A stretch of DNA of 64,000 bases. Source: Candidatus Aenigmatarchaeota archaeon (GTDB taxonomy: Archaea; Aenigmatarchaeota; Aenigmatarchaeia; CG10238-14; SCSR01). The position numbers and the translations under genes were made by a program. Below the pieces are notes generated by a model. The model did not search any database, was not told the origin of the DNA, and saw nothing but the letters and a program-made list of their open reading frames with translations. Positions 10,880 through 63,786 of this stretch are shown one piece after another; positions within the stretch are counted from its first letter, which is position 1; each line of letters begins with the position of its first letter. The DNA lies in contig JACPAE010000001.1 of NCBI GenBank assembly GCA_016181005.1, forward strand, positions 90,508 through 154,507. The letters are read 5' to 3'.

Positions 10880-11743
10880 ATGAGGCCGCTTGCCAAGTTT
10901 CTTGAGAACCAGCTGACGAAGGACGAGCTGGAGATGGTTCCGAAGAGCTATGATGTCATGGGTTCGGAGGGGAAGGGTGTCGCCATTATAGAGATTCCCA
11001 AGAAGCTGGAAGACAAGAAGCATTTGATTGCAGAGGCTGTCATGGACGTGAACAAGAATGTCAAGTCTGTTTTGAATAAAGTTTCTGGCCGCAAGGGGAC
11101 TTTTAGATTGGATGAACTGGAGTTGGTTGCCGGAGATGAGGATACCGAAGTTTTGCACAAGGAATATGGATATATGCTCAAGCTTGACCCGCAGAAGGTA
11201 TTCTTTTCGCCGAGGGAGGCTACCGACAGGGACAGGATTGCATCTTTAGTGAAACCTGGTGAGACTGTATTGGTGTTATTCTCTGGAGTCGCGCCTTATC
11301 CGATAGCTATTGCAAAGAAGTCTGATGCTAAAGTTTATGGTGTGGATATCAATCCGGCTGCGCATGAATACGCCAAGGAGAATATCCGAATCAACAAGCT
11401 GGCGCACAGGATTGTCGTTATTAATGATGACGTGAGGAATGCTGGCAGGATTTTTGATTTCAAGTTTGACAGAATCGTGATGCCAATTGCTGTCGGAGGG
11501 GAGGATTATCTGGATGAGGCGTTTTCAATGGTGAAGGATGGTGGCGTTATTCACTTTTATTCGTTTGGTGATGAAAAGGATTTGTTTTCGAAGGCGGAAG
11601 GTTTTGTCAAGGAAGCTGCAAATAGAAACAACATAAAGTTTGTTGTGGAACAGAAGAATAAGGTATTGCCGTTTGGCATTAGAAGCCATAAGATTTGCTT
11701 GGACATTAAAGCAGGGGTACCCAAGCCTGGTCTAAGGGACTAG
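10880..11743 (+). CDS. trm5: tRNA (guanine37-N1)-methyltransferase Trm5/Taw22-like (Met-10+ family)
   Basis: SAM fold ETVLVLFSGVAPYPIAIAKK...VYGVDINPAA...RIVMP. The last 33 nt overlap the tRNA-Leu 5' end. Confidence 0.75.
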   Translation: MRPLAKFLENQLTKDELEMVPKSYDVMGSEGKGVAIIEIPKKLEDKKHLIAEAVMDVNKNVKSVLNKVSGRKGTFRLDELELVAGDEDTEVLHKEYGYMLKLDPQKVFFSPREATDRDRIASLVKPGETVLVLFSGVAPYPIAIAKKSDAKVYGVDINPAAHEYAKENIRINKLAHRIVVINDDVRNAGRIFDFKFDRIVMPIAVGGEDYLDEAFSMVKDGGVIHFYSFGDEKDLFSKAEGFVKEAANRNNIKFVVEQKNKVLPFGIRSHKICLDIKAGVPKPGLRD

Positions 11744-11796
11744 CTTCAGGAGCTGGCGGCTTAGTGCCTTCGAGAGTTCGAATCTCTCCCCCTGCA
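11711..11796 (+). tRNA. tRNA-Leu (anticodon CAG), class II with long variable arm
   Basis: Hand-folded cloverleaf. Acceptor GCAGGGG/CCCCTGC forms 7 perfect base pairs. D-stem is CCC/GGG. Anticodon stem is CTAGC/GCTGG with loop TTCAGGA. Variable arm is 15 nt. T-arm is GAGAG-TTCGAAT-CTCTC with discriminator A. No encoded CCA. Confidence 0.85.
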
Positions 11797-12007
11797 CTTT
11801 GGATTTAGAGGAATTCTAGAAGATACTATTGTCTAAAGGTTTAGGACTAATTCCATTTGAAATAAGTATGATTATCTATTAAGTATAAATTTAATTATAG
11901 ATGGAAAAACTTTATACTTCTAGATAAAATCTCCTAAATGTTAATTCTGATGTGTTGCTCTTTAGGAACAACTTTAAGCATATAACTTCGTGTGATGATA
12001 TGTTCTT

Positions 12008-54382: not shown

Positions 54383-54841
54383 ATGAAAATTTTGATGCCG
54401 ACAAGCCCTGGTGGACATTTGAAACAGAGCCTATTGCTGGCCAATCGTCTTAAAATGAAGTTTGATTTAGTTTTCGTAACTTACAAGACGCCTCTAACAA
54501 AAGAAATTTTAAAAAACTACAATACAGAGTTCGTTATAGATCCGTATAGGGGAATAAAATCACTGTTTAGATATCCTGTCCTAGTACTTCAAGCTTTAGG
54601 TATACTACTAAAAGAGAGACCCAATGCAATTGTTACTCCCGGTTCAAATATACCTATACCATTCTGCTACTTGGGCAAACTGTTAGGTATAAAGGTTATT
54701 TTCATAGAAAGCTGGTCTAGGGTCAAGACTCGTTCCACATCTGGTAAATTTGCATATAAGATAGCAGATCTATTTTTTATTCAATGGAAACCCTTAAAAA
54801 AACTCTATCCTAAAGCTGTATATGCCGGTAGGTTTATGTGA
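54383..54841 (+). CDS. Alg14-like membrane-anchor subunit of split GT28 glycosyltransferase
   Basis: 152 aa with PF08660-like pattern (SPGGHL...IESWSRV). Confidence 0.65.
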   Translation: MKILMPTSPGGHLKQSLLLANRLKMKFDLVFVTYKTPLTKEILKNYNTEFVIDPYRGIKSLFRYPVLVLQALGILLKERPNAIVTPGSNIPIPFCYLGKLLGIKVIFIESWSRVKTRSTSGKFAYKIADLFFIQWKPLKKLYPKAVYAGRFM

Positions 54842-55281
54842 TATTCGTAATTGCTGGGGAACCAAGTTTTGAAGAATTGATAAAAGAAATCGATAGAATA
54901 GTACCGGAATTAAAAGAACCTGTAATAGCGCAGATAGGAAACGGTAAATATATCCCAAAAAATTGCAAATGGTTCAGAGTTCATTTTCCTCTATATCCAT
55001 ATTATAAGAAAGCAGATATTATTGTGTCGCATCATGGCGCAGGCACTATATTTGAGGTGCTGAAATTTCACAAAAAGCTTATTTGTGTGGAAAATGCTTT
55101 CAAAGGACGCAATCCGGATCTCATGAGTGAGTTAAGTAAAGGAGGGTATTTGATTGATTGTAAAAAAATTAGTGACTTGAAGAAATGTATTAGTTTGGCT
55201 AGAAAAACAAAGATAAAAAAATACAAGTCCCCTAAATGTGAAATTGGCGAAACAATTATAAAATTTTTGAACCGGGATTAA
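54838..55281 (+). CDS. Alg13-like catalytic subunit (GT28 C-terminal domain)
   Basis: SHHGAGTIFE glycosyltransferase-28 C-domain. Overlaps the Alg14-like stop. Confidence 0.65.
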   Translation: MIFVIAGEPSFEELIKEIDRIVPELKEPVIAQIGNGKYIPKNCKWFRVHFPLYPYYKKADIIVSHHGAGTIFEVLKFHKKLICVENAFKGRNPDLMSELSKGGYLIDCKKISDLKKCISLARKTKIKKYKSPKCEIGETIIKFLNRD

Positions 55282-57974
55282 GTTAATCGTGTTGGCGACA
55301 AGTACCGAGACTTTACACCATTAAACTCAAACAACAGTTCGCCGTGACATTGCAGGCATTTTCCTGCTAACGGCACTGCCTTGTACAGTGTGTCGCAATT
55401 TAGGCAAGAAAACGAGTCGTACGCTGGTAGGGGCTGCTGCAGGGTTTCTCCGTTTGTCGGCTTTATCCTGTTGCCCCTGAACAATTCTTTCAGTAACATC
55501 TGCCTTCCCAGTCCTGTCAATTCGTTTTTACTAATCCCGATGACTTCAAAGACCCTTTCCAAAGGAGGCAATATCTGATTCTCAATATAGTATCTTGAAT
55601 CGACTGCTATCTTATTTTCCTTCACGTAATCAGGATCCTCCGCGCGTTCGGACAGCAGCTGCATTCCTTTGACTATAACAAACCCCACGCGGTCACCAAC
55701 GCCTGGCGACGAACCGTTTCTCTTCTTCAATTTCTTAACAAGCTCGACGTGAGGTTGTATCCCTTTATATGAACTTATTGCCTTGGATATGCTTTTCGTA
55801 ATCACTAGGTCTTCAATGGGAACCTCGTTTCTTTCAAGCCTTTGCGTGATATCCTTAACGTACCTAAATGCCTTTTTTGTATCCTGCTCTTTCAACAAAA
55901 TATTTAATACTTCAAACAACGTCTTGGTTGTAGCGTCGCACCAGTCGCGTCTGACTGTCTCAATGCCTTTCATCACTATTTCTTCTTTCCATTCACCGTC
56001 AATTTTTTCATAGCTTAAACCTGCATATCTTTTTTTCGAAAGAATTAAAAGCGACTTGTAAACACTTTCAATTTTTAACTGGACTATGCCGTCGAGTTCT
56101 GTATTCACCAATTTTTCGACTTCATGACCGATTCTAACCGCCTCGTCTAAATCTCTCGTATTAGTCTTGACCATTATTGAATCTGTGTCCCCGTAGACTA
56201 CCTGGTAGCTGGTGCCTTTTTCCACTATCTCCTTAGTCCTGTTTATCAGAAACCTACCGCATCCAGTGATCGTATTCGCGATTTCCATGATGTACAATCT
56301 CGCCCTTAGGTATCCTGTGTATCCGTAGAATGCGTTCGTCATTATTTTAAGGGCAAGCTGTTTTGCCTCCAGGATTCTCTTAATCTCCCCACTAGATTTC
56401 CTTACACTGTCTCTAACCTTGTCCCTTTCAAATATCAACCGTTTTAAAATTGCAGGTATGACACCTTCCCTAACTTTTGGCGAGACGAACTTTGTCTCAT
56501 AGGGTGTCGTTATGGTGTCCGCTCCATTGTTTTCATCCTTGATAAGCGTTGTTGGACAGATATTGTAAGCTATGAAAATAGACGGGTACATCGACTTGAA
56601 ATCAAGATAAACCACAGATTCTGTATGCAGCCCAAGCGTCGGTTCTAGCACCAGCGCGCCTTTTAGTGTTTGTATCTCGGTTTCTTCGGAGTGCGTTCCA
56701 TCGACTGGTTTGTCTGGCAGTATGAAGCTATGAAGGTTGAACTCTCGCAGCAGAAGGTTCTCAACCCTTTGCGCCTCCCCACCGTCAAGGCAGTCCTGTA
56801 GTAGAAGTCCAGACACCTTACTCAACTCAAGAAACTTGTCTATAAACGACTTTTCTAAGAGAAGTCTTAGTGGGAGCACGGAATCTTTTTCCGCATAGTC
56901 TATCAGCTTTGACAGCTGTTCTTCCGTTCCGTGCCAGTATGAATATATTTCGCTGTGCGGGATGTTTATTTTTTCATCGTTCAGAAGTGCGCGGGACACG
57001 TCACCCAATCCCAAACGCTTCAATCTTAGATTTCCTTTTTGTATTGACTCTTTAATCAAGGCATACGTGTCTACAATCACCCTGCCTGTAACAGTGTTCC
57101 TGAATTGTTGTCCGAATTTTCTTGAAGAAGCCGGTTTTTGATTGCACCTTCCTATTGTTTGATGGAGCTTGTTTTCTCTAAGCCTATCGAGGATGTATGG
57201 AAAATCGAAGCCGTTTATATTATATCCTACCAACAGGTCTGGGTCGTAGGCTTCGATCACTCTTAAGAATTCTTGGAGCATTTCCTTCTCTGAAGAGAAG
57301 ACTTTTACGTTGCTTCTTACTCTAGTCCTTTTTGCGACCAGGGACAGGCTCTTGTGGTTATTGTAGTCGGGATTAAATGTAAGGCTTATTATTCCGATTT
57401 CATCTTTTCTAGAATCTGGTATGACATCTTTAGATATCGTCTCTATGTCTATGGAGAGATACTTGAAACTGCCATTCTCAGGGTTCTCAACTTCGGCAAA
57501 ATCCTCGACGTCCATCGAAATGTCGCACTTTACCGTGTTAGTCTTGGACGGCCTGCCTTTTACGTTAAGCCATTTAAAGCCGGATATTCCCATGTCTGCC
57601 ATAAACCTGTACTTGAAAAGTATGTCAGACTCGAACACCGATTGTACAAAACTCTCCTTCTTTAGCGATTCCCTTACTTCCGGTACCTTTGACGGATCTG
57701 TCAAGGTTACTTTCAGCATCTTCGTTTTTTCCTTTTGGTAATTAATCGACTTGAATCTCTCAACTTCTTCAATGTTTTTTATTATTTGGAAGTTTTTTTT
57801 CAGAAATTCCACCACCTTGTCCTTCTGTTTCGGCAGTACGTAGAAATAGGGATAGAACCCCCTATAAAAACCGCAGACAGCTTTACCTTCCTTGGTTTTG
57901 CCGAAAAGTCTGACTATTGGAGCATTGTCAAGAACTATATAATCGCAGTCTAGAAGCTGAAATTGAATTTCCAT
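55278..57974 (-). CDS. polB: family-B DNA polymerase with C-terminal Cys4 zinc-finger extension
   Basis: Exo I YLSIDIET, KxxxNSxYG-like KIMTNAFYGYTGY, YGDTDS, and KKRYAG. An extra ~70 aa after YYIENQILPPLERVF contains CLNCDT...(12 aa)...CLQCH. Confidence 0.95.
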   Translation of the reverse strand: MEIQFQLLDCDYIVLDNAPIVRLFGKTKEGKAVCGFYRGFYPYFYVLPKQKDKVVEFLKKNFQIIKNIEEVERFKSINYQKEKTKMLKVTLTDPSKVPEVRESLKKESFVQSVFESDILFKYRFMADMGISGFKWLNVKGRPSKTNTVKCDISMDVEDFAEVENPENGSFKYLSIDIETISKDVIPDSRKDEIGIISLTFNPDYNNHKSLSLVAKRTRVRSNVKVFSSEKEMLQEFLRVIEAYDPDLLVGYNINGFDFPYILDRLRENKLHQTIGRCNQKPASSRKFGQQFRNTVTGRVIVDTYALIKESIQKGNLRLKRLGLGDVSRALLNDEKINIPHSEIYSYWHGTEEQLSKLIDYAEKDSVLPLRLLLEKSFIDKFLELSKVSGLLLQDCLDGGEAQRVENLLLREFNLHSFILPDKPVDGTHSEETEIQTLKGALVLEPTLGLHTESVVYLDFKSMYPSIFIAYNICPTTLIKDENNGADTITTPYETKFVSPKVREGVIPAILKRLIFERDKVRDSVRKSSGEIKRILEAKQLALKIMTNAFYGYTGYLRARLYIMEIANTITGCGRFLINRTKEIVEKGTSYQVVYGDTDSIMVKTNTRDLDEAVRIGHEVEKLVNTELDGIVQLKIESVYKSLLILSKKRYAGLSYEKIDGEWKEEIVMKGIETVRRDWCDATTKTLFEVLNILLKEQDTKKAFRYVKDITQRLERNEVPIEDLVITKSISKAISSYKGIQPHVELVKKLKKRNGSSPGVGDRVGFVIVKGMQLLSERAEDPDYVKENKIAVDSRYYIENQILPPLERVFEVIGISKNELTGLGRQMLLKELFRGNRIKPTNGETLQQPLPAYDSFSCLNCDTLYKAVPLAGKCLQCHGELLFEFNGVKSRYLSPTRLT

Positions 57975-57981
57975 ACTCTAG

Positions 57982-59067
57982 TTATAAGAAGCTAGTTTTA
58001 AATATTTCCCGCGTCTGCAAATCGACATGCCATAAAATAGGAACTGCGCTATCTCCGCCTAACAAGACTGTTGTTCCCTTGTAATTGTAAACTGCTGGGT
58101 CCCCTTTAGTCATGATGATAATGTCCGGCACTATGTCAAGGAAATATATGTTGCCTTCATGAAGACTGCTGGAAGGATTTAGATTCCGCCTTTTAAGCAG
58201 CAGCGTCATTGTTTTTTCCATGTCAATATCCCACTTTTCCGCATAATGGGACAAGAGATTGCTACTTGTCAGGAAAATTTTAACGTTGTTGAATTCAATT
58301 AGGGCTGGGTTGGGATACAACATTTCTTCCTTGTTATTCGCTTCCCCTCCGAAAAAAAATATTTCATGTTCGCTTAAATCGGCTTTCAGCCTTCCTATAT
58401 CAATATCGGTTTCCAACAAAAAAATCTTTGTGGAAGGTTGTTTTCGTACCAACTCCAATAACTTGCCATAATTTTTTATGTCGAGTTTTGTTGGAAGGAT
58501 TGTGATATGACTGGGTTGTTCGCTTTTTACAACAGCCCTTTTAATTTCTATGTCAGGAAATATCACCTCTGTTACTTTAATGAATCCTTCTTCCTTTTCA
58601 CAGACTAGCGCGACAATATCATTTTCAAGCAGGTGTTCTAAAATCTCTGGGGACGCTTCAAGAGTTAAACTGCCTGTATTGTCCTCTATTTTAATTTCCC
58701 TTTCACCAACTTGTGTGACCAATGCGATTAACGTGAACTTTGGCAGTTTGTCGGAGATTCTGTTTGCCGATATTAGATTTTCGAGATTTTTTTTAGCTAA
58801 AAGAGTTTTTATAAAACTGTACCGGTAGTTGATGAGTTCCGTTGCATCTTCTACAGAATACCTTTTCTTAAGCTCAAGTTGTTTGAGGATTTTGACAGAC
58901 CTTCCCTTTAATATAAAATCTTCGCTTAGAACAAGTGGCAGCTCTTTTAGCGACATGCTCGTTATTTCTTCTAGCCTCTCAGGATGATTATAAAGTGTGT
59001 CCAATGCTTCGCTATTGACTTGAATGCCCTTATTTAGGAAGTGCTTTAGAATTTCGGACTTGTCCAT
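57982..59067 (-). CDS. DP1-like (PolD small subunit / eukaryotic B-subunit-like) protein with degenerate phosphoesterase motifs
   Basis: DP1-type N-terminal helical domain (LKHFLNKGIQVNSEALDTL), OB-fold segment (IKIEDNTGSLTLEASPE...IVALVCEKEEGFIKVTEVIFPD), then a PDE-like region. Motifs I-III read LDIKNYG, ETDIDIG, GGEANN instead of DxHxG, GDxxD, GNHD. Confidence 0.55.
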   Translation of the reverse strand: MDKSEILKHFLNKGIQVNSEALDTLYNHPERLEEITSMSLKELPLVLSEDFILKGRSVKILKQLELKKRYSVEDATELINYRYSFIKTLLAKKNLENLISANRISDKLPKFTLIALVTQVGEREIKIEDNTGSLTLEASPEILEHLLENDIVALVCEKEEGFIKVTEVIFPDIEIKRAVVKSEQPSHITILPTKLDIKNYGKLLELVRKQPSTKIFLLETDIDIGRLKADLSEHEIFFFGGEANNKEEMLYPNPALIEFNNVKIFLTSSNLLSHYAEKWDIDMEKTMTLLLKRRNLNPSSSLHEGNIYFLDIVPDIIIMTKGDPAVYNYKGTTVLLGGDSAVPILWHVDLQTREIFKTSFL

Positions 59068-59084
59068 ACCCTCGTTCTAGTTTT

Positions 59085-59351
59085 TTACTTTTTTAAGGTA
59101 TATACTATGAGGCCGTCCTTGGCGCTGATTTTTGAGTGGGGTAATGGAAGAGGTTGTATCTTCCCGGCTTCGACAAGCTCCTGAATGTACTTGTTGACCG
59201 TATTCCAGCTGACGTCGTGGTCGGTCAGCTTTGATATCTCTTTTGAGATTGTGGATGTTGTAACTGGTGTGCTGAACGTAGTTAGTATTTGTACAATTCG
59301 GTTTTGCACTTCCCTGCGAATGTTGGGTCGCCCACGCTTCATAAAGAACAT
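59085..59351 (-). CDS. small winged-helix transcriptional regulator
   Basis: 88 aa, TISKEISKLTDHDVSWNTVNKYIQELVEAGKI wHTH pattern. The alternative overlapping frame 59077-59406 is judged spurious. Confidence 0.45.
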   Translation of the reverse strand: MFFMKRGRPNIRREVQNRIVQILTTFSTPVTTSTISKEISKLTDHDVSWNTVNKYIQELVEAGKIQPLPLPHSKISAKDGLIVYTLKK

Positions 59352-59673
59352 CTAAATATTGGCGTTGATTTTTATAAACTTTTAAACTGTTTTTCCATAT
59401 GTTCAAACTTTTCTTTATGTAGGTGTATTATGGTCAATTTAGTTTAAAAAGATAAAAGTAGGTTCAATTAATAATAACGATGTTATAATATAATTATATT
59501 ATTTATTTATTATTTATATTAAGTGCCGGCCGTTGTGATCTGGTTAAACGAACTTTTAGCTGAAGGCTTGCCTAAATGGGATGAAAAAATGCAGGTATTG
59601 GACGAAAGGCCATGGATTTTATATGAACTTCCATAATTAAGGTTAGAATGTTTCAACTTATTCTTAGGAAACC

Positions 59674-60090
59674 TCATAAAAATTTAGTCAAACCACTAAT
59701 TAGGAAAAACTTTGTGATAACAGCTCTCACAAAATTATCTTTATTTCTAACTGGAGAATAGCTTACAGGGTTCGAGTGTTTTATCTTTAATAACAGTTCA
59801 GTTTTCACCAGTCTCTCAAGACGTTTTCTAAAACCTTCCACACCTATCCTCATCTTATGAACAGTCTTCATCTCATGGTATAGTATTGGAAAGCAGTGCG
59901 GTTGGCAGTCAAATGGGTAGTCCTTTCCAGTCATGTAGAATTTACGCAGTATCTGAACATCAACGAAATCCAACCTCTCGGCAAGTTCGATTGCCAAGTT
60001 GGCGGCAGAGTTATTCTCCTCTAAGAGGGAATCTTCACGAAGCGGTGAAATAAAACTTTGTTCCATAAACAACAGCTCAGGAAATACCAT
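59674..60090 (-). CDS. hypothetical protein
   Basis: 138-aa ORF, no motif recognised. Confidence 0.3.
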   Translation of the reverse strand: MVFPELLFMEQSFISPLREDSLLEENNSAANLAIELAERLDFVDVQILRKFYMTGKDYPFDCQPHCFPILYHEMKTVHKMRIGVEGFRKRLERLVKTELLLKIKHSNPVSYSPVRNKDNFVRAVITKFFLISGLTKFL

Positions 60091-60130
60091 TTCAAGCTTG
60101 CCTTTAAAATGAATTTATATTCTGCAGAGG

Positions 60131-60814
60131 TTATATCAAGTTACTTAGTTTAACATCAACTTTGCCATCATCAACGCTCACCAAGCCGAAATATCCTTCA
60201 GGGAACCGTCCACTATTGATGACTTTTGTCCCCTTTATAATGTCAACACCACTACTTTCATGTATGTGAGCGCACACAGCAGCATCCGGCTGGTTGGCTT
60301 CTATAAATTCCCTTACAGCCAGAGAGCCGACATGGGCCCCGGTTGGAATCAGGTCTATTTTTGTGTTGAATGGAGGGACATGCGTAACCTGGATTTTAAT
60401 ATCAGCACGTTTCACTTCACCAAAAGCATTTTCCAGACCCAGCATGATTTCACCTTCAGCAGGCTCGAAGGGGGTTTTGAATGGAGTTCTCGCACCTCCA
60501 TAGCCGTAAAACCCAACACCATCAATCACCTTTCCCTCACCATGCACACTTATACTCTCCTTCTTCAGGAATTCTATCACATCTTTATCCCAGCTCCCCG
60601 GTACTGTGATAATAGGAGCGTGCAACGATTTCAGCTCCTCCAAGATTATCCTAACAATGTCAGTTCTGCTAAACCCTTTCGGTACAGCATAGTCTGTAAA
60701 ATCACCCGGGCAGACGATGGCATCAATGCTGAGCACAGACATCTTATCCAGAAACTTCATTATGGCCTCTATGTCTCCGTGGATGCATCCAAGAACTGCT
60801 ATGTTCATTGACAT
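60131..60814 (-). CDS. calcineurin-like metallophosphoesterase (MJ0936/YfcE-type)
   Basis: VLGCIHGD (motif I) and CPGDFTDY (motif II). Start placed at internal ATG 60814 (table start 60856). Confidence 0.7.
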   Translation of the reverse strand: MSMNIAVLGCIHGDIEAIMKFLDKMSVLSIDAIVCPGDFTDYAVPKGFSRTDIVRIILEELKSLHAPIITVPGSWDKDVIEFLKKESISVHGEGKVIDGVGFYGYGGARTPFKTPFEPAEGEIMLGLENAFGEVKRADIKIQVTHVPPFNTKIDLIPTGAHVGSLAVREFIEANQPDAAVCAHIHESSGVDIIKGTKVINSGRFPEGYFGLVSVDDGKVDVKLSNLI

Positions 60815-60845
60815 TAATTTTATCTTGAAAGTGAAATATTTAATC

Positions 60846-61166
60846 ATGCTGAACAAGCGGAAAGGCTACAGGGTAGAAAGGAAGATAAAGCTTCTTTTGG
60901 AGAAGCATGGATGGACAGTTGTACGTGCAGGAGCTAGCCTGGGTGTTGCCGACTTGATTTCCATCAAGAACAAAAAGTGCATCCTATTGCAGATCAAATC
61001 GACAAACAAGAACACGCTGTATTATTACGGTTATGACAGAGCCAGCTTCGAGGGGTTCCCATTCTACCTTGTGGTGGACTTTGGATACGGTAAAATAAGG
61101 GTGATGCACCCAAAGAAGGTTGTTGGTGTGACAGACGGCGTAGATTTTAACAAGTTTCTGCGCTGA
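60846..61166 (+). CDS. Hjc-like Holliday-junction resolvase (PD-(D/E)xK) with Gln at the ExK position
   Basis: KRKGYRVERK...VVRAGAS...VADLISIKNKKCILLQIKS aligns to Hjc E-D-ExK as E-D-QxK. Start is at the internal ATG of table ORF 60717-61166. Confidence 0.5.
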   Translation: MLNKRKGYRVERKIKLLLEKHGWTVVRAGASLGVADLISIKNKKCILLQIKSTNKNTLYYYGYDRASFEGFPFYLVVDFGYGKIRVMHPKKVVGVTDGVDFNKFLR

Positions 61167-61203: not shown

Positions 61204-61983
61204 ATGTCAACCCGGTATTTAATCAACCCGGAGAACAGGATAGCGCTGATTACAAACTCAAATGTAATGTACGGACTGGAGAATACTACAATGCACAGCA
61301 TAGTGCAAGCGATTCCAGGTGCGCAGCGAAGGCTTCCAGTTCTCACAGAAAAGGGAAATTTGGCAGGGATACTGACGTACACGGATTTGATCAAGGCATT
61401 ATTAGGCGGCAGAGCGCCGCACTCAAGGCTCGAGTCTTTTATGACAAGGGAAGTTGTCAGTTGCGGACATGACAGTTCCGTATATGCTGTGATGAATATC
61501 CTTAGGAACTCAGGCGTTGGAGGAGTTCCTGTGCTGCGGGGCAGAAAACTTTTCGGGCTAGTGAATGAGCGCGACTTTCTAAATGTACTGGCATTAAAAC
61601 CGAACACATCAACTGTGGAGGAGATTATGACTAGAAAGCCATTTTACATAAACAGCAGTTTGCCAATCCTAGACTGCATTAAAAGCATGGCTGGAACGAA
61701 ATACAGGAGGTTTCCTGTAGTGGAGAACAAAAAGCTTGTCGGGATCGTCACCAGCTACGACGTACTTACCCATCTTAGGAAAGTGAACTTTAACATCGCG
61801 GAACTGAGCGACCCTGTGAGGGCGGTGGCAAAGCCGGCGATTACTCTTTCTAAAGGCGATGATGCCGCGGAAGCTATCAGGATCATGAAAGAAAATTCAA
61901 TAGGCGGCATTCCGGTTGTCGAAGATGGAAGGCTGGAAGGAATCGTCACGGAATACGATTTTATCAGAAAAGTTAGTGTCTAG
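61204..61983 (+). CDS. CBS-domain protein (two CBS pairs)
   Basis: Four CBS repeats (e.g. VSCGHDSSVYAVMNILRNSGVGGVPVL). Confidence 0.85.
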   Translation: MSTRYLINPENRIALITNSNVMYGLENTTMHSIVQAIPGAQRRLPVLTEKGNLAGILTYTDLIKALLGGRAPHSRLESFMTREVVSCGHDSSVYAVMNILRNSGVGGVPVLRGRKLFGLVNERDFLNVLALKPNTSTVEEIMTRKPFYINSSLPILDCIKSMAGTKYRRFPVVENKKLVGIVTSYDVLTHLRKVNFNIAELSDPVRAVAKPAITLSKGDDAAEAIRIMKENSIGGIPVVEDGRLEGIVTEYDFIRKVSV

Positions 61984-62510
61984 CGAAGGTATGAAATATG
62001 GAGTTTGGAGTAAGATGGTGCACCGCTTCCGAGAATGCTCTTAAAAAGGCACACTTCATCCACAGGCATCGACATGCCGCTACTTTCTATCTTTTCCAAG
62101 CCATCTTTAAACACTGCCTTGTCTATAACCTTTCTCACACGGCATATCGTCAAATGCGGCGGTTTGCTATCGCCGTCGATGGCCGACGCCAAATCCAGGC
62201 GTAATTTCTCCAGATCGTGGCTGTCGAGCGACAGGGCTATGACCTTTACATAATCATCGCTTGGTATGGCAACGATTTTCTCAATAGCGACCTCAAACTT
62301 TTCACGGGTTCCCACAACATCGTCCATAACTTTAGATATCTCTGGAATCTTCATCTCCGGAATCTCTCCGAGGAAGGACAATGTTATGTGGAGGTTTTCT
62401 GGTTCGACGAACTTTGCTTCAATCGGCAGTTGTTCAATCGCTCTCTTAAGTGTGTTAACATGTCGCACCACATTTTCAGGCAGAGAAATCCCGATAAAAC
62501 ACCTGACCAT
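61980..62510 (-). CDS. thpR: RNA 2',3'-cyclic phosphodiesterase / 2'-5' RNA ligase (2H family, LigT/ThpR)
   Basis: Two HxT/SxT motifs: LHITLSFLGE and PHLTICRV. Confidence 0.85.
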   Translation of the reverse strand: MVRCFIGISLPENVVRHVNTLKRAIEQLPIEAKFVEPENLHITLSFLGEIPEMKIPEISKVMDDVVGTREKFEVAIEKIVAIPSDDYVKVIALSLDSHDLEKLRLDLASAIDGDSKPPHLTICRVRKVIDKAVFKDGLEKIESSGMSMPVDEVCLFKSILGSGAPSYSKLHISYLR

Positions 62511-62552
62511 AATCTTTATTAAATTATTCTACGAATAATATAGTAGAGTTAT

Positions 62553-62816
62553 ATGGGAGAAGTCAAGATAAGAGCTGGGGATATTGTAGGAAAGACAATA
62601 ATAAGCGAAGAGACTGGAAGGAAGTTCGGAATTGTCACCAACATCGATTTTATAACTGACAGCGGGGAGCTGTTGAACATTGTCGTAGACCAGCCTACAA
62701 GGCACCTGTCAGAGATGAACCTGAAATCGGACGACGCTGGAAAGCTCTTGATTCCGTTCACTGCAGTCAAGTCAGTCGGAGACTTTATAATCATAAGCGA
62801 AAGCGAGCTCATTTAA
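62553..62816 (+). CDS. PRC-barrel domain protein
   Basis: 87 aa with GKTIISEETGRKFGIVTNIDFITDSGELLNIVV pattern. Confidence 0.55.
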   Translation: MGEVKIRAGDIVGKTIISEETGRKFGIVTNIDFITDSGELLNIVVDQPTRHLSEMNLKSDDAGKLLIPFTAVKSVGDFIIISESELI

Positions 62817-63786
62817 GCCAGGGAATTTCAACCTCGTCTGTTCTCCAATTTTGAAGCACACCACTATTCTCTATAGCAACCTTTTGTCCAGAGCCATATG
62901 CTAGAATACCGTTCCATGCTATCATTAACCCATTATCGCCTGCGTACTCTTTAGGGACTACATGCATCTCGGCATTTCTTTCATCGCACATAATTTTCAT
63001 TATTTCCTGCAGCCTTTTGTTTGCAGCTACCCCACCGACAAGAAGAACCTCTTTTTTATTCGTATGAGCTAAAGCTCTTTCCGTAACTTCTGTTAACATA
63101 GAAAAACAAGTTTCTTGCATAGAATACGCAATTGCCTCTTTACTAACACCTTCTTTAAACTTTTCTATCGCGTCAGTCATTATTCCAGTGAATGATATAT
63201 CCATCCCTTTCACCACATAAGGCAATTGTACAAAGTCGCCATTCCTTGCAAGTATTTCTATTTCCGGTCCACCAGGCATTTGCAAACCCATTTCACGTGC
63301 AAGAACGTCTAAAGCGTTGCCTATTGGGATGTCGAGCGTCTCGCCAAAGACCCTGTATTTTCCATTAGCATAAGCCAAAATCTGCGAGTTCCCGCCAGAA
63401 AGATAAACCACCACTGGATCAGTCGCACCGGTCTTTACCTTTCCTATCTCTATGTGCGCCACGCCATGATTGACTCCAATTAATGGTTTGCCCCACTTTA
63501 ATGATAAATATCTTGCCAGTGTAGCCCCTACTTTTAATGCATTCGGTATTCCCATACCTTGTGAAAATGCTATGACGTCGACACTGTTTAAATCAACCTT
63601 TTCTTTAACAAAGCCAAGTAGCTGTGGTGCAATTGCTATGTGATGGTCAGCAAGATCGCTTGGAATAAAGCCTTTGCCTATCGTGGGTGTGAACATGTCT
63701 TTAACGTTCACTAGCACTTCACACTTGCCGTCAACTACACCTATGCCAATTGTGTGTGCAGTTGCCTCCAAACCAAAGGATATCAT
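62809..63786 (-). CDS. kae1: tRNA N6-threonylcarbamoyladenosine synthase Kae1 (KEOPS catalytic subunit)
   Basis: GLEATAHTIGIGVV and GVNHGVAHIE (His metal site), ASKH-fold, 325 aa. Confidence 0.95.
   Translation of the reverse strand: MISFGLEATAHTIGIGVVDGKCEVLVNVKDMFTPTIGKGFIPSDLADHHIAIAPQLLGFVKEKVDLNSVDVIAFSQGMGIPNALKVGATLARYLSLKWGKPLIGVNHGVAHIEIGKVKTGATDPVVVYLSGGNSQILAYANGKYRVFGETLDIPIGNALDVLAREMGLQMPGGPEIEILARNGDFVQLPYVVKGMDISFTGIMTDAIEKFKEGVSKEAIAYSMQETCFSMLTEVTERALAHTNKKEVLLVGGVAANKRLQEIMKIMCDERNAEMHVVPKEYAGDNGLMIAWNGILAYGSGQKVAIENSGVLQNWRTDEVEIPWLK

Follow-up and report, generated by a model that had tools for sequence, protein, structure and literature searches.

The stretch of DNA analysed here (hereafter the window) comprises 64,000 nt of the genome of a Candidatus Aenigmatarchaeota archaeon (assembly GCA_016181005.1, contig JACPAE010000001.1, positions 90,508 to 154,507). 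It harbours a gene for a family-B DNA polymerase, polB, immediately preceded by a gene for a 361-residue protein related to DP1, the small subunit of the archaeal DNA polymerase PolD. The two genes very probably code for a two-subunit replicative DNA polymerase of the Aenigmatarchaeota (DPANN), in which PolB has replaced DP2 as the catalytic subunit. The homologies, the motif states, the origin of the zinc ribbon at the C terminus of PolB and the conserved synteny reported below come from this analysis; the physical interaction of the partners in this phylum and the absence of DP2 are taken from the literature.

The polB/DP1-like system is already known: it was described in 2020 and the interaction was shown in 2025. 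Kazlauskas et al. 2020 defined the PolB group B6-aenigma1, which has a single motif for metal binding that most closely resembles Zn-III of DP2, and described a clade of inactivated DP1 proteins in Aenigmarchaeota, most of which have no DP2. They proposed this lineage as a model for the origin of the eukaryotic catalytic/B-subunit pairs (PMC7544198). [quoted passage not shown] The Aenigmatarchaeota CTD was found to be shorter and degenerate, and the two-motif ‘B6-aenigma2’ sequences were reassigned to Baldrarchaeia (PMC12680538). The window PolB has intact family-B motifs, exactly one Zn-III-like C4 motif and an Aenigmarchaeota origin, as expected for B6-aenigma1, and the DP1-like protein likewise has the features of the inactive DP1 clade.

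The polB gene (55278..57974, minus strand, 898 residues) and the DP1-like gene (57982..59067, minus strand, 361 residues) have the coordinates given in an earlier note on this DNA, which had rightly placed the latter directly upstream of polB, on the same strand, with a 7-nt gap. The spacer between the stop codon of the DP1-like gene and the start codon of polB (57975..57981, minus strand) reads TAActagagtATG, and in most orthologous loci the gap is 1–9 nt. The two proteins are identical to the NCBI entries HYT70_00935 and HYT70_00940, respectively, of a Candidatus Aenigmarchaeota metagenome-assembled genome (MAG), where they are called hypothetical proteins. The same arrangement is found in independent assemblies from three sequencing runs.

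A homologue search with the single 361-residue sequence, limited by its word index, found just three proteins. The family was collected through its synteny with polB, by scanning species-representative genomes with a PolB alignment, which yielded 80 loci. At 75 of them, a same-strand open reading frame (ORF) of 255–442 residues ends 1–80 nt ahead of polB, and all but one of these 75 ORFs are homologous to the 361-residue protein (70 are detected by plain phmmer). Three additional loci (L057, L077 and L083) also have the DP1-like gene, which brings its occurrence directly upstream of polB to at least 77 of the 80 species genomes. The phyletic survey suggested in the earlier note thus bears out the adjacency, and each of the 80 species has one such pair. 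Most of the loci are labelled Aenigmatarchaeota and others ‘uncultured archaeon’. The records of four loci carry other labels, namely ‘uncultured bacterium’ (L008), ‘Bathyarchaeota’ (L039), ‘bacterium’ (L051) and ‘Nanoarchaeota’ (L082), yet they encode Aenigmatarchaeota-type PolB proteins, and these labels probably represent binning or labelling errors.

Based on Pfam searches and its orthologues, PolB is a family-B DNA polymerase of the B6-aenigma1 type and a PolB-DP2CTD fusion. Its 3′–5′ exonuclease domain (residues 112–318; 57021..57641, minus strand) matches DNA_pol_B_exo1 at 7.2e-37, and its polymerase domain (residues 393–812; 55539..56798, minus strand), in which motifs A, B and C are intact, matches DNA_pol_B at 5.2e-117. 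We identified more than 120 orthologues of approximately 895 residues, with 54–75% identity. In an alignment of 25 of them, the exonuclease residues D176-I-E178 and N252/F256/D257 are invariant, as are Y360 and D364 of Exo III, just downstream of the Pfam exonuclease match, and the polymerase residues D458, K543/N547/Y550-G551 and YGDTDS (594–599). One orthologue (P0041) has 1335 residues and harbours intein and LAGLIDADG Pfam domains, and it corresponds to an intein-containing version of the polymerase. Among solved structures, the closest chain to PolB is the catalytic subunit of human Pol delta (3.3e-108), narrowly ahead of Thermococcales PolB. This near-tie is consistent with the placement of group B6 as sister to the Delta-like clade.

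The earlier note had pointed out a C-terminal extension of about 70 residues with a CxxC...CxxC finger. The finger is present and its Cys residues are invariant, but the extension past the Pfam polymerase domain is longer, with 86 residues (813–898) that comprise a PIP-like box, a linker of ~25 residues, a zinc ribbon and a 22-residue tail. The ribbon, the sole C-terminal C4 motif of PolB, is formed by C857-x2-C860-x12-C873-x2-C876 (55347..55406, minus strand). Its four Cys residues are invariant both in the set of 25 orthologues and in a set of 69, and the C4 ribbon is thus kept in 69 of 69 PolB proteins, so that the extension is no assembly artefact. A profile built on the last 62 residues of PolB matched residues 1127–1163 of DP2 from Thermococcus kodakarensis (6knb_B) at 1.2e-10 and DP2 from Pyrococcus abyssi at 4.3e-9, the next unrelated zinc finger coming only at 1.4e-3, seven orders of magnitude behind. 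Furthermore, all 69 CTDs matched the DP2 NCBIfam models. Judging from these profiles, the ribbon is the Zn-III module of DP2 specifically.

In PolD, the KxRRxP loop of Zn-III inserts in an acidic groove at the interface of the OB and phosphoesterase domains of DP1, and DP1 also binds a peptide of 20 residues from Zn-III, with an affinity in the nanomolar range (PMC6355029). The family consensus of PolB retains the sequence CxKCNKxYRRxPLxGKC. The PIP-like box, QMLLKELF (residues 825–832; 55479..55502, minus strand), is located between the thumb and the zinc ribbon. The corresponding motif, Q-x-x-[LIMV]-x-x followed by two hydrophobic residues, recurs at one and the same place in 61 of the 75 orthologues, compared with 5% of shuffled linkers. 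We infer from this conservation that the box may bind PCNA, and its position suggests that PolB acquired the finger of DP2 as an addition after its original PCNA-binding motif at the C terminus.

The DP1-like protein was proposed in the earlier note to follow the DP1 blueprint, with an N-terminal helical domain, an OB fold and a calcineurin-like domain, and both profile searches and structure prediction agree with this. A profile built on the 72 family members matched PDB chains of DP1 over all three domains, the best ones being those of T. kodakarensis (6knb_A, 5.8e-40) and P. abyssi (6t8h_A, 8.7e-33). It also reached the B-subunits of eukaryotic polymerases, with E values of 7e-5 for human Pol delta p50, 5e-4 for the Pol epsilon B-subunit and ~0.01 for yeast Pol31, which supports the B-subunit likeness put forward earlier. 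In an AlphaFold2 model built from a 14-row alignment (pLDDT 83.9, pTM 0.76), a helical bundle at the N terminus is followed by an OB barrel and then by an alpha/beta sandwich. In a Foldseek search with this model, the best 38 PDB matches are all DP1 proteins or B-subunits of Pol alpha, delta, epsilon or zeta, with generic metallophosphatases ranking below them. The profile and model evidence together identify the 361-residue protein as a true DP1/B-subunit homologue.

The N-terminal helical domain of this protein (residues 1–55; 58903..59067, minus strand) is probably the equivalent of DP1N: the model has helices at residues 3–12, 19–27, 29–36 and 49–53, with pLDDT values of 83–92 over residues 1–55, and the alignment with the NCBIfam DP1 model starts at residue 1. 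Matches of the family profile to DP1N structures were weak (2kxe_A, 0.016; 7e15_C, 0.57). The Pfam PolB_N domain was detected in three of the 72 relatives, with a best E value of 8.1e-7. The OB-fold domain (residues ~100–170; 58558..58770, minus strand), with beta strands between residues 110 and 169 in the model, corresponds to the stretch that best matches DP1 (profile positions 61–220), and the most conserved residues of the family, E128, D129, T131 and G132, are found in this region. Alignments delimit a degenerate calcineurin-like phosphoesterase domain (residues 185–361; 57985..58515, minus strand), the fold of which is kept in the model.

We compared the Mre11-type nuclease motifs of the 361-residue protein with those of motif-retaining relatives and of canonical DPANN DP1 proteins (P0126, P0127, P0129, P0132 and P0133). 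Motif I, SDxHxG, is replaced by ILPT or falls in a gap; motif II, GDLVDG, by ETDID-IG; motif III, GNHD, by GEAN; motif IV, YHG, by TSS; and motif V, GHIH, by TK-G. The protein also has no insert between motifs II and III and is devoid of one C-terminal insert. It thus lacks the intact DxH, GDxxD, GNHD, H and GHxH motifs of an active DP1, and its phosphoesterase site is predicted to be dead. The earlier note had foreseen a dead nuclease from three motifs, and the case is stronger than claimed, with all five lost. Of the three strings that it gave, ETDIDIG and GGEANN were correctly assigned, but the true DxH position is a few residues upstream of LDIKNYG.

The decay of the nuclease site is graded over the 72 DP1-like family members. 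Motifs I, II, IV and V are kept in 11–15 of them, and where an active DP1 has GNHD these read GExD or worse. A histidine in motif III, equivalent to H451 of P. abyssi, is found in none of the 72. Mutation of H451 in P. abyssi DP1 gives a proofreading-deficient enzyme. At the other extreme, some 100 residues of the phosphoesterase domain are deleted in seven lineages (L049, L056, L058, L059, L063, L064 and L072).

Taken together, these features are consistent with a division of labour in which PolB would polymerise and would use an exonuclease domain of its own to proofread. In analogy to PolD and to Pol alpha, delta and epsilon, the zinc ribbon of PolB would dock where the OB and phosphoesterase domains of the DP1-like protein form a groove. 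The latter, with its nuclease residues gone, would serve as a structural B-subunit, and its apparently retained N-terminal domain probably ties the polymerase to the replisome. DP1N is described as binding Gins51 in Thermococcus (PMC9023282), and a similar contact with GINS may exist here.

A number of observations weigh against this reading, at least for the window pair. The two-hybrid assays were performed with another Aenigmatarchaeota representative, and our own check for the absence of DP2 covered the 64-kb window alone. The RR pair of the KxRRxP loop, which contacts DP1 in PolD, is KA in the window PolB (YKAVP), with one basic residue lost, and the PolB CTD is devoid of the helical bundle that serves the DP2–DP1 and the eukaryotic interfaces. 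The window DP1-like protein is among the most degenerate of its family, and the interface may be weaker or different here. The profile check of the 361-residue protein gave a split result: taken alone, it scored 13.2 bits with Pfam DNA_pol_E_B (PF04042; cut-off 29.1, E = 0.059), but it matched the NCBIfam DP1 model at 3.3e-11 over residues 1–190, in line with the family profile. PF04042 matches 14 of the 72 DP1-like relatives at E ≤ 0.01, and we attribute the sub-threshold score to divergence rather than to a lack of homology. Lastly, in promoter and terminator scans of positions 55000–60200 and of the intergenic region upstream of the gene cluster, with a scanner that handles bacterial signals only, the counts were those expected from shuffled sequences.

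Some of the same observations could be explained if the DP1-like gene were a decaying relic of a lost PolD, with no binding to PolB and no role in replication. The loss of all catalytic motifs, the deletion of several segments and the truncated phosphoesterase domains of some lineages would fit such a scenario, as would the fast evolution of the DP1-like family, which has a mean column identity of 30% compared with 68% for PolB. Moreover, the RR docking pair is missing in 23 of the 69 PolB proteins, that of the window included. We also looked for a trace of physical contact in the relation between loss of this pair and retention of the phosphoesterase motifs in the partner protein; the correlation (Spearman rho 0.26, p = 0.03, kinship ignored) is too weak to be used as evidence. 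Against a relic, the ORF is kept intact and tightly spaced ahead of polB in no fewer than 77 of the 80 species genomes. In addition to the four OB residues mentioned above, P171, R294, P314, D315, Y329 and K330 are conserved, at the surface or in the core of a confidently predicted fold, the four ribbon Cys residues of PolB are invariant, and the two-hybrid interaction has been reported for this phylum (PMC12680538). We consider a relic unlikely.

The chromosomal setting bears on a second alternative, that the two genes are the PolB and accessory subunit brought along by an integrated virus or mobile element, and not the chromosomal replicase of the host. PolB proteins are common on archaeal mobile elements, and the intein of orthologue P0041 might also point in that direction. 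A mobile-element origin was suggested as a possibility for the B6 PolB proteins by Kazlauskas et al. (PMC7544198). However, the neighbours of the pair in the window are chromosomal genes (a glycosylation cluster, Kae1, LigT, Hjc and thiolase), and related genomes have the same housekeeping flanks, with Kae1, LigT, CBS, Hjc and sugar-nucleotide genes. There is a single copy per genome, and in divergent lineages the pair follows orc1/cdc6, as described below. No integrase, virion or capsid gene and no terminal repeat signal was found among the annotated ORFs of the window. That the pair is part of such an element thus appears highly improbable. We also looked within the 64 kb for DP2, for another copy of DP1 or PolB and for Orc1, and found none; apart from PolB, the largest ORF codes for at most 722 residues.

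[quoted passage not shown]

We thus retain the two-subunit polymerase and compare it with known systems. With respect to the B6-aenigma1 complex of PMC12680538, it comes from the same phylum and has the same Zn-III-like C4 motif, an inactive DP1 homologue and a eukaryote-like pairing. There is no essential difference, except that the window copy stands at the degenerate end, with its five motifs gone and KA in place of the RR of the loop. With archaeal PolD (6HMS and 6T8H of P. abyssi, 6KNB of T. kodakarensis), it shares a small subunit made up of an OB and a phosphoesterase domain preceded by a helical, probably DP1N-like domain, the same Zn-III ribbon and the order of genes, the small subunit preceding the catalytic one, with orc1/cdc6 first in some lineages as in the Thermococcales operon. 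In contrast with PolD, the catalytic core is a family-B polymerase rather than the two-barrel DP2, the nuclease of the small subunit is predicted to be dead and proofreading would be performed by PolB, the CTD has no helical bundle, and the DP1-like protein is ~120–250 residues shorter.

The earlier note had likened the pair to the eukaryotic polymerases, a view that is supported, with a qualification for the CTD. As in Pol delta, alpha and epsilon (6TNY, 4Y97 and 5VBN), a family-B polymerase carries a Cys-rich C-terminal tether for a nuclease-dead, DP1-derived subunit with OB and phosphoesterase domains; of the solved structures, Pol delta comes nearest to the PolB core, and the fold of the B-subunit matches. 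PolB with the docking finger of DP2 Zn-III and a dead DP1 are both present here, but the CTD is not of the eukaryotic type, in which CysA and CysB flank a helical bundle. It has a single metal motif, the equivalent of CysB/Zn-2; CysA, the Fe-S cluster and the three-helix bundle are missing, and the genes form a prokaryotic cluster. With only one zinc motif and no space for a helical bundle, the CTD is therefore best described as a reduced DP2-type domain. The PolB3-DP2CTD of Baldrarchaeia (formerly ‘B6-aenigma2’) is likewise an archaeal PolB with a DP2-derived CTD and a DP1 partner in a lineage without DP2. In Baldrarchaeia, a full-length CTD bears two metal motifs and is nearer to the eukaryotic one, whereas that of the window is a short, single-ribbon version.

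The pair represents a living example of the intermediate proposed between PolD and the eukaryotic replicative polymerases, and as such it bears on the origin of the eukaryotic replisome. Others have already pointed out this importance and put part of it to the test (PMC7544198, PMC12680538), and the window therefore adds an unusually degenerate member rather than a discovery. What we add is the phylum-wide, operon-like gene order, the mutually exclusive presence of a winged-helix gene or orc1/cdc6 upstream, the PIP-like box and the stepwise decay of the nuclease, which could aid experiments on a minimal PolB/B-subunit holoenzyme. In the main texts of PMC7544198 and PMC12680538, nothing is said of how the genes are ordered, of a winged-helix or orc1 gene upstream of them, or of a PIP-like box.

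The winged-helix gene codes for an 85-residue protein and lies 17 nt upstream of the DP1-like gene (59085..59342, minus strand; the longest ORF extends to 59351). A homologue is encoded immediately upstream on the same strand in ~58 of 69 loci (for instance L005:178-432 and L009:2635-2889), with spacings of −8 to +60 nt. These proteins are better conserved than the DP1-like ones, with an MKRGRP start and the motifs SWNTVQKY..ELVE and LPHSK. Fold and profile searches with the winged-helix protein gave generic winged helix-turn-helix matches alone (Fur, MarR, Hop2 and Z-alpha), and it is its synteny that links it, putatively, to the polymerase. At the twelve most divergent loci (L045, L055, L060, L061, L065, L066, L069, L070, L077, L081, L083 and L084), the upstream slot is taken by orc1/cdc6, on the same strand. 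The two genes are mutually exclusive, as no winged-helix gene was found within ±4 kb at the orc1 loci. We considered that the winged-helix protein might be a remnant of the C-terminal winged-helix domain of Orc1/Cdc6, but hmmsearch gave no match and hhalign a probability of 0.4%.

The order orc1, DP1-like gene, polB mirrors the cdc6-DP1-DP2 arrangement of Thermococcales. In Pyrococcus, the Orc1/Cdc6-DP1-DP2 operon adjoins oriC, and the linkage between cdc6 and DP1 is widespread (PMC10989965, PMC2643942). The gene order in the divergent lineages would fit an in-place replacement of the body of the DP2 gene by polB.

We know of no further accessory subunits of the archaeal PolB/DP1-like pair. 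In Pol delta, the B-subunit is the docking site for the winged-helix N-domain of Pol32/p66. By likeness to this docking, we tentatively propose, as a rather doubtful possibility, that the winged-helix protein is a third, undescribed component of the holoenzyme, either an accessory subunit bound to the DP1-like protein or a dedicated regulator; the orc1 gene order would then record an in-place replacement of DP2 in which the Zn-III coding end alone was kept.

The intergenic region upstream of the winged-helix gene is AT-rich (59343..59673, minus strand), with a TATA-like tttataaaaa ~30 nt ahead of the ATG at 59342. Read from these features, it is the putative promoter of the three-gene cluster. 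The winged-helix, DP1-like and polB genes are most likely co-transcribed, and the winged-helix gene would likely come first. No significant repeat, and none resembling an origin, was found in positions 55000–60200 or in the upstream intergenic region.

Further upstream, a block conserved with relatives L001, L004 and L086 (59674..61166 and 61204..63786) codes for a 138-residue protein without Pfam match (59674..60090), a 241-residue, apparently intact calcineurin-like metallophosphoesterase (60131..60856), an Hjc resolvase (within 60717..61166) and then a CBS protein, LigT and Kae1/TsaD. On the other side, a split glycosyltransferase pair with Alg14-like and Alg13-like (Glyco_tran_28_C) proteins (54383..55281, plus strand) is convergent with polB, and its stop codon overlaps that of polB by 4 nt. 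The GC content of the window is ~44–50% in the first 12 kb, falls to 31% in a trough at 12–14 kb and is mostly 36–42% thereafter, with 44.5% at 60–62 kb; a tRNA-Leu(CAG) gene (11711..11797) lies close to the GC boundary.

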